Source of the DNA: Angelvirus px29
Lineage: Duplodnaviria; Heunggongvirae; Uroviricota; Caudoviricetes; Straboviridae
DNA: 64,000 nt
Reading direction: 5' to 3' (one strand)
Virus record (IMG/VR): IMGVR_UViG_2700988902_000001
Span: 11,520-75,519 of that record
The position numbers were made by a program, and so were the translations under genes. Below are positions 39,198 through 64,000 of the stretch, piece after piece. The notes beneath the pieces were generated by a model, which saw nothing but the letters and a program-made list of their open reading frames with translations, was not told where the DNA came from and did not search any database. Each line of letters begins with the position of its first letter. The stretch's first letter is position 1.

Positions 39198-39652
39198 TGC
39201 GTAGTCCTATAACCATCAAATACACTTCTGGCACGATAATAGTCCTTGACTGTAAAGCCATTAGCACTATCAACGTGAATGAAATTTTCTTTTTGTGATT
39301 CCAACATATCGTCATCATCGTCAATGATAACATACTTTTTACAATCGAGGTGTTTGTCTAACCATTCTTTGATTAGCTCTCCGCGATGTTCACCAACGAG
39401 ATCCCGAGTCTTGAAATCTTCATGCAGACATCCGGGAGGAAATCCAGCTAGTGCTAGATGATCTCTCACCATCTGAACATCACAGCCAAGTCTCCAAGTG
39501 CTACTGTATACCACTTTCAAATTGTAGTCAACGATAAGTTTTGATAGGAGCTTTACAGCCCCTATATCTACCATTTGTCCATATTTCAGATAGCTAGAAT
39601 CAGAATGATAAACGCCATCAACATCGAGAAACAATACTCTCAGTTCTTTCAT
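39164..39652 (-). CDS. HAD-superfamily phosphatase (nucleotidase/polynucleotide phosphatase-like)
   Basis: 162 aa. Motif I FLDVDGV and motif IV VIIDDDDD. Confidence 0.7.
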   Translation of the reverse strand: MKELRVLFLDVDGVYHSDSSYLKYGQMVDIGAVKLLSKLIVDYNLKVVYSSTWRLGCDVQMVRDHLALAGFPPGCLHEDFKTRDLVGEHRGELIKEWLDKHLDCKKYVIIDDDDDMLESQKENFIHVDSANGFTVKDYYRARSVFDGYRTTQCQEHKNMGRI

Positions 39653-40896
39653 ATGTCAAGCGTCCACATTGTATCTTTCAGCCAAGACGGATATTCTCTA
39701 CCTTCGCTGGTATCAGTTTCGTCTAGTGTGTTGCAATAAGCAATACAAAATTCTAACTGCGAACGTTGTTCTTCGCCGAGTAACGCAACCAAACGCTCTA
39801 TGGCAGCGTTTCTATTGTCCAGCATATACTCGCAAGCGTAGATACGAGAAACGATTCTGGTAGCACCCTGACCAGCGTTGAGCATACGCTTTACAATACC
39901 TTCGAGTATGTTACCGTCACCGCACGATGGCTCAAAGAAAGTCGAACCTGAATTCAGATCATCGATGTCCGTATAATCTAACATCTGATTAACGATTTCA
40001 ATCGGAGTAAAGAATTCTGCCGTTTTCTTTTGACGTTCTCGCTCGATTGTGCTAGTGAAGTTTCTGGTTTCATCAACAACTTTCGTTTTGTGTCTGATAC
40101 CAGAATAGTAATCTTCGATTACTTCCGGCACTTTATGTCTGATATGAGTTAATTCAAATTTCTCAAATAGTTCATCATCAGTCCAGCGTCTGGTCATATC
40201 TAACCATGGTATCGCATTCAGTTCTCCGCTGTCAAGATGAATGTTCATCTTATACAAAGAAAGCATGAATCTAGCGAAATCTGTTTTCAGATAAGCAACA
40301 AAGTTCTCTGCCTCTTCTAACGTTTTGAATGCAAAGTTTTGACCACGCTTAGGCATTTCAGTTGTCGGAACGTAGTCGGTCGGAAACATGGTAAAGAAAT
40401 CAGAATTAAAGCGTTTGCCAGCTTCTGGTGGGTGTCCTCTAACACTCGCTATAGTGACGTAATGACTTGCGCCAATAACCTCACCGGAGCATTCCATATG
40501 CGCTACGCTAGGATATTTCATCTTGTCATAGACATCAGAACACCAATCGCCAAGCATATTGATTTTGTCTAAAGGCAATTTAGCAGTGTAATATCCAGAG
40601 ACATCGATTAGATCTGATTTCTTTGTGGTATCAATAACAGTTATACTAAGCGGAGTCAGAAACCCAGCTTTGAAAACGGCGTTACCGTCGAACAAATGAA
40701 TACTCGTTTTGTGCGCTTTCATGTTGCCAAGAAGTTCAGCAACGCGCTTTGTTTGTCGGGTCGGCTTTCTGTTTACAAAGGGGCCAGACGGATGCACAGC
40801 GATTGTGACATCACATTTCTTTACCCCTAAGTTAACAAAGTCAACGTGCAAACCCGCACTATATGGCGGGTTTGCGATCATATAATCAAAGCGCAT
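39649..40896 (-). CDS. DNA N6-adenine methyltransferase, beta-class
   Basis: 415 aa. Motif IV NPPY at residues 9-12, motif I EPSCGDGNIL ~300 aa downstream. Confidence 0.8.
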   Translation of the reverse strand: MRFDYMIANPPYSAGLHVDFVNLGVKKCDVTIAVHPSGPFVNRKPTRQTKRVAELLGNMKAHKTSIHLFDGNAVFKAGFLTPLSITVIDTTKKSDLIDVSGYYTAKLPLDKINMLGDWCSDVYDKMKYPSVAHMECSGEVIGASHYVTIASVRGHPPEAGKRFNSDFFTMFPTDYVPTTEMPKRGQNFAFKTLEEAENFVAYLKTDFARFMLSLYKMNIHLDSGELNAIPWLDMTRRWTDDELFEKFELTHIRHKVPEVIEDYYSGIRHKTKVVDETRNFTSTIERERQKKTAEFFTPIEIVNQMLDYTDIDDLNSGSTFFEPSCGDGNILEGIVKRMLNAGQGATRIVSRIYACEYMLDNRNAAIERLVALLGEEQRSQLEFCIAYCNTLDETDTSEGREYPSWLKDTMWTLDI

Positions 40897-41620: not shown

Positions 41621-42799
41621 TTAGATACCAAACATAAAATCAAGCCCAGATTTAGCATTTTCTTTATCGTGTGCTTCGATTGCTTTCTTATACGCTTCGA
41701 GTTCAGACGGAACACCAATAAACTCATGAGAATAGCTAACGCGATCTTTCACAAACTTGGGATCGACCGAGTGTTTCATCATTTTGTTTGGTGTAACTGG
41801 TGTTCTATTGCTGGACGTCGCTTTCCACTTGATAGAACGTTCGTGGTACTCTCCGAGCTTAGGGTTAGTGGTACGAGTATAGAATCTCTTACCTCTCGCC
41901 AGAAGCTGGTAGGCGACGGCCTCGGTCATCTTCGGACCAATCCCCATTCCCTGAAAGTCTGGAAGCACAACAAGACGATGTGCAATCCACGCATCTTTGA
42001 CTGTGCCAGATGGCAACGGGAGAATACTAACGAATCCAACCGGTACATCACCCCATTTCATCAAGTAACAATGGCTTGCCACGTTGATTTCGCGAGAGAG
42101 GTAGTGATGGTCGGCAAACCCAAGATCTGAGTAGGCTTTTGCTGATACAGGTGTGATGTCGAGCGCAATCGCTGGAAACCGCCTTTCTGACCCCCGAATA
42201 ATTAGTTGCTCATTCGATACGTCAAACACCCAATCCGGTTGCAGCCACTCGATGATATCATAGTGACAAGACGCAAACACAAGACCTTTGATGCCAGTAC
42301 GATCAACGTATTTTCTAATACTCTTTGAGCAAGAAATAGCAACGTTACGGTCAACAACCGATGTAAACTCGTCAATAACGGTATTATCAACCAGACTACG
42401 GGCCAAGTTAGCGCGGAACTGTTGACCATTAGAAAGAGAATGAAACGGTTTTGCCCAGTGTGGGACAGAGTTGAAACCAACGGCACCAAGTCGTTCTTGC
42501 GCATCTTCAACACTATCAAAGTGTGAAGCAATCGCTTTGTTGTGTTCCCACTTTACTTCTTTTTCGATACCGAAATTACGAAGAATGGTTGACTTACCAC
42601 TACCACTTGGACCAACAATCAAACCAATGCCGTATTCTTTCGGTACTTCATGTGGCATCAGATTCTTGATCTTGGTAGTGGTAGTTCCATCAAACTCAAA
42701 ATCCATTTGCTTGGTTACTTCAACGACAATAGCGTCGAGTTCAACTTTGGTTTCGCGAGTGATATATCCACTTTCGTCGGTAAATTGTTCGAGACTCAT
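41621..42799 (-). CDS. ABC-type ATPase fused to a GNAT N-acyltransferase domain; clamp-binding-like C-terminal tail
   Basis: 392 aa. Walker A GPSGSGKST, ABC signature LSNGQQ, Walker B VIDEFTSVVD, H-loop CH. C-terminal GNAT motif A ..LPDFQGMGIGPKM... Extreme C-terminus SGLDFMFGI resembles the T4 gp45-binding motif (LDFLF/Y). Confidence 0.75.
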   Translation of the reverse strand: MSLEQFTDESGYITRETKVELDAIVVEVTKQMDFEFDGTTTTKIKNLMPHEVPKEYGIGLIVGPSGSGKSTILRNFGIEKEVKWEHNKAIASHFDSVEDAQERLGAVGFNSVPHWAKPFHSLSNGQQFRANLARSLVDNTVIDEFTSVVDRNVAISCSKSIRKYVDRTGIKGLVFASCHYDIIEWLQPDWVFDVSNEQLIIRGSERRFPAIALDITPVSAKAYSDLGFADHHYLSREINVASHCYLMKWGDVPVGFVSILPLPSGTVKDAWIAHRLVVLPDFQGMGIGPKMTEAVAYQLLARGKRFYTRTTNPKLGEYHERSIKWKATSSNRTPVTPNKMMKHSVDPKFVKDRVSYSHEFIGVPSELEAYKKAIEAHDKENAKSGLDFMFGI

Positions 42800-52356: not shown

Positions 52357-52809
52357 TTAATTACCATTATGATAGTTGATAGCGTATTCTTTCAGCTCTT
52401 GATAGAATGCTTGATACTCGATTGTTCGAATGATGTCCTTCGGACCAATGCCCTTCAAACGTCGAATATCGCTATTAGTCCGAAGATCGCTCATTTTGAT
52501 ATAAACAGAACGAATGTCCAGTTTAACCCGAGCTTTGTAATCTTCTTTACTTTCGCCCGGACGCTTGCTCACGTTTTCAACGAGTTGAATCGCGTCAAGA
52601 CTCATGCCGTTAGAGATCAACAGATCTCGACCGTTTTCGATGTCTTCGATGATATCGTGAGCCAATGCAGCTTGTTTGGTAGCTTCATCAGCACACTCAG
52701 GAAGTCCCTTCAAAACTGCTAGACAGTGTTCGAAATACGGGTGACCACCTTTGTCATTGACATCGGCAAATGCAGTTGCTACCAGTGCATAAAGTTTAGA
52801 TAGAGTCAT
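52357..52809 (-). CDS. HD-domain phosphohydrolase (YfbR/5'-deoxynucleotidase-like)
   Basis: 150 aa. H..(x)..ALAHDIIED arrangement (..GGHPYFEHCLAV...AALAHDIIEDIENG..). Confidence 0.6.
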   Translation of the reverse strand: MTLSKLYALVATAFADVNDKGGHPYFEHCLAVLKGLPECADEATKQAALAHDIIEDIENGRDLLISNGMSLDAIQLVENVSKRPGESKEDYKARVKLDIRSVYIKMSDLRTNSDIRRLKGIGPKDIIRTIEYQAFYQELKEYAINYHNGN

Positions 52810-55112: not shown

Positions 55113-55130
55113 AAGGTGGCTTTTATTTTT
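55113..55130 (-). terminator. Rho-independent terminator after nadV
   Basis: GCCACC-UUCG-GGUGGC followed by U6. Same hairpin sequence as at 10752 and 61809. Confidence 0.8.
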
Positions 55131-56625
55131 ACGCTTGTTCGTCGCTACGTGCGCGAGCTTCGTCAAACAACTCTTTGGTGTATTGATGGGAGCAAGTCCC
55201 GTCCATCAGATAAGTAACAAACTCGTTGCTGTGCTCATACTGAGCAAAACGCGGGTCAAGAACGTTTACAGTCTTATATTGACCGTCAATCTTGACGAGA
55301 CGCATACGACCAGCTTTAGAAGCTTTCCATGCAGCGTCTTTCGGATTCTTACGAACACCACGCCATTTGCCATTTACGCGAATTGCAGAGCATTTGTAAG
55401 CCCACTTCTGGGTGTCGCGGTCGCATTTCTGCAACAGTCCACCACCCATACCGAAAGCAACGTTTTCGACACTGAAACCCAGTTCTTTGATGAACTTCAG
55501 GCAAGCTTCGATGTCCTTATCAGAACTCAGACCGTCGCCTTGAATCACACGATAGCTACCATGCAGAACTTTATAGCCTTTGCTGTTCACAGTGAAACCA
55601 ACGTTTTTCGCGATAGTCTCCAGAGCATATCCGATATTATCAAACATGTCGCCAGAGTCAGGACGAATCACGCAAGTACCGCCGCGAGCCAGAATCTCTT
55701 TCTTGAATTCACCAGTGGTCAGACGATCAACCGCTGCTTTGTAGTCGATAGAGTCAGCAACAATCGCATAAACACCGTCGCCCCAGTTGCGAATGCTGTT
55801 CCAGAATGCTTCGTCTTCTTGTTCAGGAGTCAGCAAACCTTCATCACCATAGCAAATGGTAGTGCTATGCTCACGCGCTGGGATACTGATACCAACAGCG
55901 ATATCATGAGCCATGTTATAGATGTCTTGTGCAAGAATCAGAGCTTCAACGGTATCAGTACCCATGAAGTTGATCAGATGCGCCAGACCACCCAGTTTCG
56001 CCGCTTGTTCGCAAGTCGCACCGCGAGCACCGAAGTCGTGCAGGCGAGTTTTCAGAACAAAGTCAAGATCAGCACCTTCCAGATCTGAGGTTTCTTTCAG
56101 ATACTTTTTGCAAAGCTTCTTGATTTTGAAACTCAGAGTTGCAACAGAGCTGGGATACCAGTGACCGCGCAACACGAAAGTTTCGAGGTGACCACCGATG
56201 CTGAAAGCAGAACCGAAAGTCTCCAGAACCATAGTTGCATTACGACCCGGAATAACTTGACCGTCTTTTGCACCGTACATATTAACCGGCAGTTTACCAC
56301 CACGTTCAGTTGCAATTTTCATCCACATGTCATACGCGAAGATATCGCGGCCGAAGTGAGATTTGTAAAGCAAGTTTGCGCGAGTTACGTCAGCGACAGT
56401 AATACCCTGCTCCAGGACACGCGCAAGAAAGTGAAGACCAGACAACATCACAGGATCATCGATTCGCGGTTCGGCGTAGAAACTAGCGGCATCGCTACCT
56501 TCTGGGAACTGCCAAGGATGGCTGATTTTGTAAGAGTCAGTGGAAACACACAGATTGGATTTAAATACGTTCATTTGAAGGCTCCCTTCATTGATTGATG
56601 TTTTTGTTTTGTGATTTCTTATCAC
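55129..56625 (-). CDS. nadV: Nicotinamide phosphoribosyltransferase (NAMPT)
   Basis: 498 aa. Conserved ..STDSYKISHPWQ.. and full-length similarity to NadV/PBEF of KVP40-type phages. Confidence 0.9.
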   Translation of the reverse strand: MIRNHKTKTSINEGSLQMNVFKSNLCVSTDSYKISHPWQFPEGSDAASFYAEPRIDDPVMLSGLHFLARVLEQGITVADVTRANLLYKSHFGRDIFAYDMWMKIATERGGKLPVNMYGAKDGQVIPGRNATMVLETFGSAFSIGGHLETFVLRGHWYPSSVATLSFKIKKLCKKYLKETSDLEGADLDFVLKTRLHDFGARGATCEQAAKLGGLAHLINFMGTDTVEALILAQDIYNMAHDIAVGISIPAREHSTTICYGDEGLLTPEQEDEAFWNSIRNWGDGVYAIVADSIDYKAAVDRLTTGEFKKEILARGGTCVIRPDSGDMFDNIGYALETIAKNVGFTVNSKGYKVLHGSYRVIQGDGLSSDKDIEACLKFIKELGFSVENVAFGMGGGLLQKCDRDTQKWAYKCSAIRVNGKWRGVRKNPKDAAWKASKAGRMRLVKIDGQYKTVNVLDPRFAQYEHSNEFVTYLMDGTCSHQYTKELFDEARARSDEQA

Positions 56626-57940: not shown

Positions 57941-58103
57941 GAGCTTTTATGATAAGACTAATGTCTTGTAATGTCAACTCTTTTTTCACGATTTTGTGTG
58001 TTTTCGGAATATAGATTGAACCAACCAAACTATTTCCACCGCGACGATACCAGTTTTCTCGTTGCTCGATCAATTCGTGTTGATGAAGTGCATCTTGACT
58101 CAC
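57864..58103 (-). CDS. Hypothetical protein
   Basis: 79 aa. Overlaps its neighbour, so the start may be internal. Confidence 0.4.
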   Translation of the reverse strand: MSQDALHQHELIEQRENWYRRGGNSLVGSIYIPKTHKIVKKELTLQDISLIIKALDISISDNHPLFEQAKQQGLFDATV

Positions 58104-59074
58104 AGCAGATTACTCCTGTCACCATAGTTTACTTCTTCAACGTACATTTCGTAAAGGAAATTATCCCAGAACTCGGTATCCACTTTTTCACGCATACCGT
58201 TTTTCTTGGCGATAACAATCTCTTTCTCGACGTCATTCATGAGCTGTTCGAGATACGGGTTAACTTCATCGACAAGACTACGCTTTCCTAGCTTGATGTC
58301 AAGGATAAATTCGCGATGTTTCAGTGGGAATTTCAGATCACCAGTTCGATAGATCTCAAGCAGTTGCTCACCTCCGCGCACGGCATGAGACAGTGCTTTC
58401 CAGTCAACACCGACCTCTTCTTTGGCTTTCTTAGCACGATCACCGTATTCTTCCCAGATCTTTGTGATCTGATGCTCAAATTCAGTAAACTTGATGCCAT
58501 AAAGATACTTGCGACCCAACACTTCATAGAATTGAACAACTTCACCGGTTCGACTAATTTCAGCACCCGGGAACGTGAATTCATCGGTAGGCAGTCGTCC
58601 AACGAAGCTGGACAGACGGTAGCCACGTTCGTCTTGTGGTACTGCTTTGACTACTGCCATAACTCGTTCCAGAGCGGCCAATCGCGTACCTTTCACACCG
58701 TACTTTGTTGCTTGTTTGCGACAGTAACCCAAGAAAGCGTCCATCTTGGTAGTGTAGAACATCGAGCGTTTTTGATGAATGTAATCCCAATATTTCGTGG
58801 TTTCGATCAGTTGATTACTATGCAACATATCAATGCACATAGTTTCGCCTTTGCTTGCGAGTCGCAAGAACTGACGCAAGGACATCATTTCGGTATCGAT
58901 ATCATCAACGGTATTTTTACCTTTACCGCCAGTCGATTCGTTGTAGACCTCACGTCCACCAAGAATGATTTCGCGAGCAGTAGGGATAAAGATCCCTTTA
59001 TAATCTCGGTCGGATGTTGGCGTACTCAGCCCATACAAATGCGAGCCGAACACGGTTTTCATTAGAGTTTTCAT
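58100..59074 (-). CDS. Pol-beta-superfamily nucleotidyltransferase domain protein
   Basis: 324 aa. N-terminal FGSHLYGLSTPTSDRDYKGIF (GS-x10-DxD minimal NTase motif) plus a helical C-terminal domain. Confidence 0.6.
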   Translation of the reverse strand: MKTLMKTVFGSHLYGLSTPTSDRDYKGIFIPTAREIILGGREVYNESTGGKGKNTVDDIDTEMMSLRQFLRLASKGETMCIDMLHSNQLIETTKYWDYIHQKRSMFYTTKMDAFLGYCRKQATKYGVKGTRLAALERVMAVVKAVPQDERGYRLSSFVGRLPTDEFTFPGAEISRTGEVVQFYEVLGRKYLYGIKFTEFEHQITKIWEEYGDRAKKAKEEVGVDWKALSHAVRGGEQLLEIYRTGDLKFPLKHREFILDIKLGKRSLVDEVNPYLEQLMNDVEKEIVIAKKNGMREKVDTEFWDNFLYEMYVEEVNYGDRSNLL

Positions 59075-61377: not shown

Positions 61378-61412
61378 TTTCAATGAGGCCATTATTACAT
61401 GGCCTCTTAGTC
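61378..61412 (-). promoter_or_regulatory. Early promoter with -10 inside an inverted repeat
   Basis: TTGACA-N16-TAATAA. IR GAGGCCAT-GTAATA-ATGGCCTC. Confidence 0.55.
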
Positions 61413-61421
61413 GTGTCAAAC

Positions 61422-61724: not shown

Positions 61725-61808
61725 GATGTTTTCCTCAGTTGTGTATTTCGTTTCGATGTGTGTATAGTAACACAACGGCAGATCGACGCAAGGACTTTTA
61801 CACAAAAA

Positions 61809-61826
61809 AGCCACCCGAAGGTGGCT
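61809..61826 (-). terminator. Rho-independent terminator
   Basis: GCCACC-UUCG-GGUGGC followed by U6. Confidence 0.8.
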
Positions 61827-61831
61827 TTAGT

Positions 61832-63967
61832 TTACTTACAGGCTCTGGACAAGAATTTCTCCAAGTCTTTTCCTTTAAGTTTCTTACACATAGAATATCT
61901 ATTGTATTCTGTTGACTTCGATGGAATATACACAGAAACATATGAGTCTTCGCCATACTCAAGTTCTACGCCGTTAGCCGGAACGAACTCTTTCGGGTCA
62001 ACATACTCAAGAATTCCGTTCTTGCGCATCGGGATCATACCGTCATAGAAAGTATAAATCGCATAATCGCTAGTCTTGGCCATCTTGGCTTCGGTCAGCA
62101 TTTCACTGAACTTCATTGTTTTGCTTTCGTTCATGCTTCCCTTCATTTTGATTTGATGCTCTTTGTATTTGCTGAAAGTGTTCAGCTCAACTTCATAGCA
62201 TTTCAAGATCTTGACTTGCTTCTTCGGATCAAACACGGCCCATTCTGGTGAACGAACTGCATGATGATCGGTTGGATTCGGACAACCAGCAGAACGATAA
62301 TCTTTTCTGCGCTCACCAAGAATGGTTTCCATTTCGAACACATAACCACGAGTCCCAGCATGACGACCATAACCATCGTTACTCACGTATTGCAAAATCT
62401 TATCGATTTTGTTACTAAAGTAAAGACCATCGCCAAGCATACGACCAACAACCGATTTATCCTTACTCGGGATGATCTTGAAACCATAGCGAAGAACCAT
62501 GTTAGCAGCGATACCACCAGTACCGTGGAAAGCTGGCACAATTTGTTCCAGTTTGCCAATAGATTCTTGAGCTTTCAAGAACTCGTTATATTCTGGATAA
62601 GACAAGTTAACAGTGAAAGACTTGTGAATCAATGGGTAAGTGTTACCGTGTTTGCCTGCATAGTAGGTATCAACCAGATGCTTACCAATCAAATATTTCT
62701 GTTCGTCGCTGATATTGTCATCGCTAACAGCACAAGGCGGAACAACTGTGCTTGAATCAGCAGCAGATTCAACACGACGAATATAATCACTAAAGTTTTC
62801 GCCTTTCTTAGCGCGAATCTTAGCAGCTTTTACCAGTTCGTCTGGGTCAATCTCGTTAAACTCGAACATCTTCTTAACGCGACGCATATCAGGGGTATCA
62901 AACATGTTGATCGGACCACCAGATACTTGGTTATAGATGAACTTAACACCAGTCAAAGTATTGCGAACTTTGGTCTTGTAATAAGTTTCCAGTTCTTCAA
63001 AGAATGCGTTAGCAACCACTTCATCTTCTTTCATACCATTATAAATGATATCAACCAGAGTTTGTTGTGCTTTCGCTTTATCATCACGACGTCTAATACC
63101 GGTCAGATTTTCTTTGTTCATGAACTTAAATCCGAATTCGACCTCAAGAGCCATAAACTTAGCTGATGATTTTTCATCGAAATCAATCTTGTTGATGAAG
63201 TCATATGTAAAGTCACCAACATACTGTGCGTCCATGTCATCGCCAAAGTGCTCATATGCTGCAAGCAACATCGGAACACGAACGTGTGGTTCACATTGAC
63301 CAATACGAGACACAAAGCGTCTAACGCCATCTTTTGTTTTGATGTTATTAAGCAAGAAATTAACACGCTCTTCTACCTGAGTTTCTGTTGTAGCAGAGTC
63401 AAGATAGGTCGGCATCAGTTGCATAGCGTAATGCACTTCGGCAGGATTATCAATCTTCTGCAAAATCATTTCTTGAATTTCTTTGGTCACTTCTGGGAAC
63501 TTAGTCATTGACAGTTTCAGCGCCTCAAGCGGCGGATAATTCACGCTGTTCAGTTTTGTATAACGAACAACTGCCTTGGCCAATTGAGCAACTGCAATAG
63601 ACGGCATGAAACGCAATGGAATATGCGTCATTTCATTTGGTTTTGCGCCTGCGGTCATCTTGTATTCATAAACGAATTCGGTATCATCAAGATACATTTT
63701 CTTGAGCCAATATTCGGAAATGAAATCAAAGTTAGCACCGGTAATATAATCGCGAGTCAGATAAACAACCATATTGCGGAACTTGTTAATCGGCTCGGTA
63801 CCCTTGCCCCATGTCGGCAGACCCGGGATTGTTGGGTAAATCTTGGCAATCTCTTCGTTACAGACTTTAACCAATGTGGCTTGTGCCTTGGTATTGGTGA
63901 AAATATCAAACTCAGAACCAAACAGTGGGTTCTGTTTCATGTCCGTGCCTTGATGTCCCATAAGCAC
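61832..63967 (-). CDS. Large protein with C-terminal PARP-like (H-Y-E class) ADP-ribosyltransferase domain
   Basis: 711 aa. Near the C-terminus ..VPAFHGTGGIAANMVLRYGFKIIP..MLGDGLYFSNKIDKILQYVS..RGYVFEMETILGE matches PARP motifs H-G-S/T, G-x-G-h-Y-F, S..Y and a catalytic Glu. Confidence 0.55.
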   Translation of the reverse strand: MLMGHQGTDMKQNPLFGSEFDIFTNTKAQATLVKVCNEEIAKIYPTIPGLPTWGKGTEPINKFRNMVVYLTRDYITGANFDFISEYWLKKMYLDDTEFVYEYKMTAGAKPNEMTHIPLRFMPSIAVAQLAKAVVRYTKLNSVNYPPLEALKLSMTKFPEVTKEIQEMILQKIDNPAEVHYAMQLMPTYLDSATTETQVEERVNFLLNNIKTKDGVRRFVSRIGQCEPHVRVPMLLAAYEHFGDDMDAQYVGDFTYDFINKIDFDEKSSAKFMALEVEFGFKFMNKENLTGIRRRDDKAKAQQTLVDIIYNGMKEDEVVANAFFEELETYYKTKVRNTLTGVKFIYNQVSGGPINMFDTPDMRRVKKMFEFNEIDPDELVKAAKIRAKKGENFSDYIRRVESAADSSTVVPPCAVSDDNISDEQKYLIGKHLVDTYYAGKHGNTYPLIHKSFTVNLSYPEYNEFLKAQESIGKLEQIVPAFHGTGGIAANMVLRYGFKIIPSKDKSVVGRMLGDGLYFSNKIDKILQYVSNDGYGRHAGTRGYVFEMETILGERRKDYRSAGCPNPTDHHAVRSPEWAVFDPKKQVKILKCYEVELNTFSKYKEHQIKMKGSMNESKTMKFSEMLTEAKMAKTSDYAIYTFYDGMIPMRKNGILEYVDPKEFVPANGVELEYGEDSYVSVYIPSKSTEYNRYSMCKKLKGKDLEKFLSRACK

Positions 63968-64000
63968 AGTTGAAACTGTGATGAAACTAACAGCAAATTG

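Follow-up and report, generated by a model that had tools for sequence, protein, structure and literature searches.

The window analysed here, a stretch of 64,000 nucleotides, comes from Aeromonas phage PX29, a T4-like phage of the genus Angelvirus (Straboviridae), and corresponds to positions 11520-75519 of the PX29 record. All annotated genes in it lie on the minus strand. At its far end, an earlier note on this DNA had delimited an open reading frame (ORF) of 711 amino acids (61832..63967, minus strand) and had ascribed to it a PARP-like ADP-ribosyltransferase (ART) domain. The frame is real, and its translation is 99.9% identical to the PX29 protein; as a gene, it is incomplete. From the GTG at 63967 to the edge of the window, the frame meets no stop codon (63968-64000), and the window end matches PX29 base for base. 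Because the frame stays open to the edge and the window holds only the last 722 codons of the PX29 gene CL89_gp130 (hereafter gp130), the GTG start is an artefact and the protein is far larger. The complete gene measures 3,561 nucleotides and encodes 1,186 residues, annotated in PX29 only as 'hypothetical protein'; the C-terminal 60% lies inside the window, and the N-terminal 464 codons are found beyond its edge. The earliest hint of this truncation was the match of the ORF to phrog_18612, the PHROG profile of the family, which begins at profile position 488 of 1,214. The gene is followed by a strong terminator with a 9-bp GC-rich stem, a TTCG loop and a T tract. The features of the locus are collected in Table 1; residue numbers refer to the ORF unless the full-length protein is mentioned.

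We found that the C-terminal module of gp130 is a real and probably active PARP-family (H-Y-E) ART. The Pfam PARP profile (PF00644) matched the ORF with 21.1 bits (E=2.4e-4) over positions 40-102 of 199, and relatives scored between 24.5 and 29.0 bits, the highest of which (P0006, 29.0) is above the gathering cut-off of 26.7. A profile built from 60 family members matched the catalytic domains of chicken and human PARP1 in the PDB (E=3.8e-4), favouring PARP1 among solved structures, with an alignment that spans the H-x-x-x-H-G region, HG[ST] and G-x-G-I-Y-F up to the second Tyr. Against the catalytic sequence of human PARP1, the family profile scored 33.9 bits, and the first half of the PARP1 sequence used here agrees with the PDB alignment. 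A phmmer search of the PDB with the single sequence gave no matches, and neither PADLOC nor NCBIfam models matched gp130. An AlphaFold2 (AF2) model of residues 290-711, computed from 47 sequences, reached a mean predicted local distance difference test (pLDDT) score of 89.1, and a Foldseek comparison of this model with the PDB returned PARP1 and PARP2 catalytic domains for all of the top 50 matches (best E=9e-11). The fold is thus nearer to PARPs than to other ART families. The three peptides on which the domain had initially been recognized are present at residues 480-500, 510-527 and 542-552. Its placement in the C-terminal ~120 amino acids, or at residues 560-711, needs correction: the motifs lie at 480-552 and the fold extends over residues ~410-600.

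The active site could be assigned over 158 family representatives, which are only 30-50% identical. Aligned to PARP1, the conserved residues comprise the catalytic His (H481), the triad Tyr (Y516) and the second, nicotinamide-stacking Tyr (Y527), which are retained in 157, 158 and 158 of the representatives, respectively. For the catalytic Glu, our results point to another residue than the one suggested before. The peptide YVFEMETILGE had been put forward as the catalytic-Glu motif, yet its three glutamates E545, E547 and E552 are kept in only 95, 55 and 38 of the 158 relatives, versus all 158 for E575. The segment around E575, SPEWAVFDPKKQVKILKCYEVEL, resembles the catalytic-Glu segment of PARP1, and in the model it has the same position in the order of the strands, that is, on the strand before the last long one, as in PARPs. 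An invariant Gln follows nine residues downstream of E575. That relatives so divergent keep H, Y, Y and E without change argues for selection on the active site. The loop leading from the 'Y-x-x-A-G' strand to the putative catalytic Glu has 13 residues in PX29 and is shorter in most relatives; the corresponding loop of PARP1 is about 40 residues long. A short loop is nearer to tankyrase and the mono-ARTs, which gives a weak hint as to whether single units or chains might be transferred.

Table 1 Features of gp130 and of the surrounding window (positions in the window; residues of the ORF, or of the full-length protein where marked FL)
Feature	Position	Strand	Residues	Basis or remark
C-terminal 722 codons and stop of PX29 gp130	61832..64000	-		Open frame to window edge; PX29 annotation and translation
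PARP-family ADP-ribosyltransferase catalytic domain	62168..62740	-	410-600 (FL 885-1075)	Followed by two helices, then the C-terminal beta domain
Catalytic His, equivalent to PARP1 H862	62525..62527	-	H481 (FL H956)	157/158 relatives; hhalign to PARP1; codon checked
Triad Tyr in GDGLYFS, equivalent to PARP1 Y896	62420..62422	-	Y516	158/158; hhalign; codon checked
Second conserved Tyr in KILQY, equivalent to PARP1 Y907	62387..62389	-	Y527	158/158; hhalign; codon checked
Putative catalytic Glu in SPEWAVFD, likely counterpart of PARP1 E988 in YNEYIVYD	62243..62245	-	E575 (FL E1050)	158/158; strand order in AF2 model
YVFEMETILGE, core (internal) beta strand equivalent to PARP1 GLILLGEVALGN, not the E988 strand	62312..62344	-		hhalign
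All-alpha N-terminal domain			FL 25-195	Confident in AF2
Disordered acidic/Pro-rich linker			FL 201-253	
Long alpha-helical region (~620-residue alpha-solenoid)			FL 260-880	
C-terminal part of alpha-solenoid, all-alpha	62753..64000	-		
Six helices directly before the ART domain (last ~110 residues)	62753..63088	-		
Conserved C-terminal beta domain	61835..62068	-	634-711	AF2 strands with pLDDT ~90; conserved F640, G643, P646
Intrinsic terminator, AAAGCCACC-TTCG-GGTGGCTTT then TTTTGTG	61807..61828	-		Directly 3' of gp130 stop; terminator scan (PX29 locus L001:10140-10161) and window sequence
Best sigma-70-like site of the region, TTGACA-17-AATAAT with TG	61391-61419	-		~400 nt downstream of gp130 terminator
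Nucleotidyltransferase	58100-59074	-	324 aa	Pfam RlaP (RNA repair pathway DNA polymerase beta family), E=3.9e-13
NadV/NAMPT	55129..56625	-		NCBIfam PRK09198, 408 bits
Small HD-domain protein	52357-52809	-		PF13328, E=5.9e-8
Protein with P-loop (ABC/AAA-like) region and GNAT acetyltransferase domain	41621-42799	-	392 aa	PX29 annotation: similar to conserved bacterial hypothetical proteins
Protein with borderline N6 DNA methylase match	39649-40896	-	415 aa	20.0 bits; cut-off 20.4

These data agree with the initial call of an ART domain of the PARP/diphtheria-toxin class, distinct from the R-S-E enzymes of T4, which is borne out by the profiles, the fold and the invariant residues. In line with this, neither the R-S-E pattern nor the Alt/VIP2-like fold that would place gp130 with Alt, ModA and ModB of T4 was found, and a reading of gp130 as a diphtheria-toxin-like toxin was also rejected. 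The other option that had been offered, a Tpt1/KptA-like RNA 2'-phosphotransferase, has to be dropped because the His, both Tyr and the Glu are invariant in 157-158 of 158 relatives; KptA falls in the H-H-h clade (clade names as in PMC9503650), from which the H-Y-E pattern differs. For the same reasons, that is, the strict invariance of the four residues across divergent relatives and a pattern that is H-Y-E and not H-H-h, it is barely credible that gp130 is a catalytically dead pseudo-PARP or an enzyme of the Tpt1/KptA type.

We next considered the protein as a whole. The AF2 model of full-length gp130 (pLDDT 79.5) shows an N-terminal all-alpha domain, a linker, a long solenoid, the ART domain and a terminal beta domain. 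Across the family, residues ~20-230 and ~770-1140 form conserved modules around a variable middle. The N-terminal domain has no relatives outside the family in the PDB, where designed coiled coils gave the best E (0.054), in Pfam or in the PHROGs, and tblastn placed it solely in these PARP proteins. The six helices that precede the ART domain might, according to the model, match the helical (HD) subdomain of PARP1-3. The C-terminal beta domain is without a match in Pfam; it also trails the ART domain in stand-alone homologues of 230-380 amino acids (P0008-P0012).

This architecture is common to a large family. Clustering at 50% yielded 358 representatives, 230 of them with E<=1e-30, which mostly comprise 1,100-1,500 amino acids and have the N- and C-terminal modules in common. 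The family became visible only by an exhaustive search of representatives, for which we used the 99%-identical full-length protein of AsFcp_2 as the query; word-indexed homologue searches gave 6, 6 and 7 proteins. Several orthologues carry the annotation ADP-ribosyltransferase or PARP catalytic domain protein. Variants of the architecture were also observed. A metagenomic T4-like contig (L006:7426-16612) has an apparently split version, consisting of an 852-residue N-terminal ORF (MVLNE/NSLY; here and below, the slash marks the bond after the conserved Glu discussed further on) and an adjacent PARP ORF of 236 residues, and a second, intact paralogue of 1,541 residues located 1.3 kb downstream of the split pair, between regA/clamp loader and DNA polymerase. 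In Pseudomonas phage pf16, gp92 (1,312 residues; L007:2932-6870) has this PARP module as well, there preceded by an N-terminal region that is unrelated and the start of which, MEDLEIISEELLTELF..., recalls the N-terminus of T4 Alt, MELITELFDE.

Closer inspection of the neighbourhood revealed a gene for an ADP-ribosylglycohydrolase (ARH), gp131, located 150 nt upstream of gp130 on the minus strand (PX29 locus L001:5510-6424; PF03747, 119 bits). It lies just outside the window and was invisible in the earlier note because the window ends inside gp130. Its best scores were obtained with the Tri1 and DraG models, well under their cut-offs. The adjacency of ARH and ART is seen in PX29 and likewise in phage Aeh1 (PMC1524935). 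A promoter-like site precedes gp131 and the strong terminator follows gp130, so gp131 and gp130 are probably transcribed as a unit. The sigma-70 promoter scan of the region remained at background level; its best site is given in Table 1. As the earlier note had pointed out, a gene for NadV is located nearby, 5.2 kb downstream of gp130. Among the window genes scanned, we saw no NMN adenylyltransferase (NMNAT) that could act as a partner of NadV. In Stenotrophomonas phage Moby (Menderavirus), genes for NMNAT and NAMPT lie 3-4 kb beyond the PARP-like gene, and Ps15 also has both near its PARP-like gene. A putative nucleotidyltransferase is encoded between gp130 and nadV. Further along the window, the genes listed last in Table 1 specify a small HD-domain protein, a P-loop and acetyltransferase protein and a candidate DNA methylase.

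The earlier note implied that the finding was new, although the Aeh1 orthologue had already been called PARP-like in 2005, 2006, 2014 and 2022. Otto et al. (2005) reported just two PARP-like pARTs from viruses, the Aeh1 protein being one of them, and described a large associated region unlike vertebrate PARPs (PMC1266365). In 2006, ORF131c with its PARP catalytic domain and ORF132c, the ADP-ribosylglycohydrolase, were tabulated (PMC1524935). In 2014, the Aeh1 PARP was counted among four PARP genes of dsDNA viruses, in three of which the triad is fully conserved, with Asp replacing Glu in an unnamed fourth (PMC4245714). More recently, PART (PARP) was ranked among the most frequent viral ART families and the transferase-glycohydrolase (ART-ARG) pair of Aeromonas phages was described (Iyer et al. 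2022, PMC9503650); it has also been proposed that the PARPs of eukaryotes and iridoviruses are related to, or derived from, those of phages (PMC7824862, PMC9503650). These published in-silico views agree with the PARP reading (PMC1266365, PMC4245714, PMC9503650). Aeh1 ORF131c (P0004), an orthologue of gp130, shares 48% identity with the window ORF over 90% of its length and can be aligned with the full protein from one end to the other (1,211 versus 1,186 residues); the N- and C-terminal modules and the upstream ARH gene are common to both (PMC1524935). The Aeh1 protein has been described as PARP-like with conserved catalytic residues (PMC1266365, PMC4245714), whereas gp130 is still a hypothetical protein in the PX29 annotation. 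Towards eukaryotic PARPs (PARP1/2, tankyrase 1/2 and PARP10), the identity of the gp130 domain is only 14-19%. Their WGR, BRCT, zinc-finger, ankyrin and macro domains are not present in gp130, which has instead the phage-specific N-terminal domain, the alpha-solenoid and the C-terminal beta domain. The gene pair is also reminiscent of DraT/DraG, in which a transferase gene stands beside a hydrolase gene of the ARH family (PF03747), a comparison made for Aeromonas phages in PMC9503650. DraT, however, is an arginine-modifying enzyme of the R-S-E type, while the PX29 transferase is PARP-type, comprises 1,186 residues and is without an ARH partner outside Aeromonas phages.

Taken together, the observed fold, conserved catalytic residues, domain architecture and gene neighbourhood are best explained by gp130 being a 1,186-residue phage protein with a catalytically competent PARP-type module in its C-terminal part, an interpretation to which we assign a probability of roughly 0.7. 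From this we infer that gp130 acts as an enzyme, what kind of target it would have and that the glycohydrolase would reverse the modification. NAD+ would be held through H481, Y516 and Y527, and E575 would activate the transfer of ADP-ribose to a macromolecule of the infected Aeromonas cell, which is most likely a protein; the earlier note had named DNA or RNA ends and host defence proteins as conceivable targets. Choice or regulation of the target could be the task of the ~880 residues ahead of the catalytic module and of the small beta domain at the C-terminus. In phages of the Aeromonas lineage, gp131 might remove the modification and thus make it reversible or self-limiting. Several observations weigh against this interpretation. 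The PF00644 score of gp130 is under the gathering threshold and the match is limited to the first half of the domain. The equivalence of E575 and PARP1 E988 is deduced from conservation, motif similarity and strand order, because the profile alignments to PARP1 and tankyrase-2 ended after the second Tyr. Moreover, the ARH neighbour is absent beside the orthologues of Stenotrophomonas phage Moby, Xanthomonas phage X1, Ralstonia phage RSP15 and three metagenomic contigs (L005, L006 and L012). Its confinement to Aeromonas phages means that reversal would not be general to the family. Finally, the literature searched contained no biochemical work on any member of the gp130 family and no experiments on any phage PARP family member.

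The same gene pair could also represent a toxin-antitoxin system of the ART-ARG kind (Iyer et al. 2022), in which a PARP-like toxin checked by the glycohydrolase aborts superinfection or competes with other phages, and does not serve host take-over. This was proposed explicitly (PMC9503650), and both the adjacency of the two genes in PX29 and Aeh1 (PMC1524935) and the resemblance of the ARH to DraG and Tri1 speak for it. We nevertheless consider it improbable: PX29, a T4-like phage, is virulent and has no evident lysogenic phase, the size and multidomain build of its ART are unlike those of compact toxins in such systems, most lineages that keep the ART are without the ARH partner, and the PADLOC defence models match neither gp130 nor gp131. 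The genomic position of some orthologues suggests yet another role, namely that of a PARP1-like enzyme of DNA metabolism, which intermediates of replication or recombination would activate or attract and which would modify DNA ends or replication and repair proteins. In Moby and X1, the orthologue is located among replication genes, between gp32, which encodes the single-stranded DNA-binding protein, and the exonuclease gene dexA, after primase, RNase H, gp33 and gp59, and both copies on the metagenomic T4-like contig mentioned above lie between regA/clamp loader and DNA polymerase. The preference of the sequence profile for PARP1 and the six helices before the ART domain, as in the HD subdomain of PARP1-3, are consistent with such a role. 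Yet the searches revealed in gp130 neither a WGR or zinc-finger domain nor any other that binds DNA, PF02877 (PARP regulatory domain) gave no match, and the PX29 gene stands amid small genes of unknown function and not among replication genes. Gene order in the early region of T4-like phages is also a weak functional signal. We judge that this explanation, too, probably does not apply.

Provided that gp130 is a competent PARP-type enzyme, the question arises of how it is delivered. T4 Alt offers a comparison: it, too, is a large T4-like phage ART whose gene lies on the early strand close to the 30.x genes, and has an N-terminal [L/I]-x-E motif that is cleaved in Alt and has a similar counterpart in gp130 (PMC9026906). 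By analogy, gp130 may have the same role as Alt, that of an injected host-takeover enzyme, although the two belong to different clades, R-S-E and H-Y-E/PARP (PMC9503650), and Alt is a proven virion protein with a late promoter, while gp130 lacks TATAAATA nearby. In T4, gp21 cleaves after L/I-x-E, and the 10-residue signal comprises residues 4 and 7 for targeting and residues 8 and 10 for processing; Alt loses a propeptide of 7 residues (PMC9026906). The N-terminus of gp130 (L001:6576-6650, beyond the window) reads ...Y16-D-R-F19-L20-T-E22/N and thus ends in L-x-E, with aromatic residues at the targeting positions -6 and -3. All 117 family members with E-N-[ST]-[LF]-Y have a hydrophobic residue two positions before the Glu (L in 75, I in 33, V in 7 and F in 2), compared to a background of 34% for [LIVMF]-x-E at other Glu of the same proteins, and the residue in between varies over 18 amino acids. 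The leaders before the Glu comprise 4-33 residues (median 10). In 21 of the 117, including all Aeromonas phage members, they conform to [FYW]xx[FYW][LIVMF]xE, a pattern found at 1.3% of other Glu and not once among 120 N-termini of window ORFs on the minus strand. Leaders such as MKKFNEFIQE/N and MKNFSEYLQE/N are similar to those of T4 IPII/IPIII (MKTYQEFIAE/A), IPI (MKTFKEF...ITE/A) and Alt (MELITE/LF). The AF2 model has a pLDDT below 50 at residues 1-20 of gp130, and myovirus ARTs in general have been argued to be packaged in the head (PMC9503650).

Based on these similarities, we tentatively propose, as a refinement that we would not yet favour over its opposite, that gp130 is a capsid-packaged effector like T4 Alt. 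The short N-terminal propeptide would target the protein to the prohead core, a gp21-type prohead protease would cut after [L/I]-x-E (in PX29 ...YDRFLTE/NTLY), and the mature enzyme, ejected with the DNA, would ADP-ribosylate its targets in the host only seconds into the infection; the glycohydrolase encoded alongside could shield the producing cell or remove the marks at a later point. Since T4 alt itself is an early-strand gene next to the 30.x genes, the genomic position of gp130 is no objection to packaging. However, the T4-type late promoter TATAAATA, which T4 alt has 29 nt upstream, is absent from 18 kb around gp130. It occurs once in the 64-kb window versus a chance expectation of 2.0, which, together with the minus-strand orientation of all annotated genes, marks the window as a block of early and middle genes. 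In addition, E-N-S-L-Y is conserved at the start of a folded domain, where the hydrophobic residue could have a structural role, certain leaders have only 4-5 residues (MLLLE/, MILQE/) and are too short for a T4-type targeting signal, the N-terminus is located outside the window, and no virion proteomics for phages with this gene was found in the literature searched. In its broadest form, the proposal would unite gp130 with its ~350 relatives in a widespread class of capsid-packaged, prohead-protease-processed and injected PARPs that put mono- or poly-ADP-ribose on host proteins or nucleic-acid ends at the start of infection, with the alpha-solenoid as a target platform and NAD+ salvage genes refilling the pool; we think it unlikely that all of this holds.

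Overall, PARP-type enzymes are usually taken as a eukaryotic signature. The family and its ARH partner were already known in silico, so the novelty of our results is low and no new kind of system is added. What this work contributes is a corrected gene model and active-site assignment for the PX29 protein, the demonstration that the family is large and has one architecture, and the N-terminal delivery lead, which is new. If the packaged class exists, it would be the H-Y-E counterpart of T4 Alt, and if chains are made, it would represent the first poly-ADP-ribosylation system shown to act in phage infection. Packaging of gp130 would also give the ARH a role in guarding the producing cell and would mean that T4-like phages use two unrelated ART clades for one injected-effector strategy.

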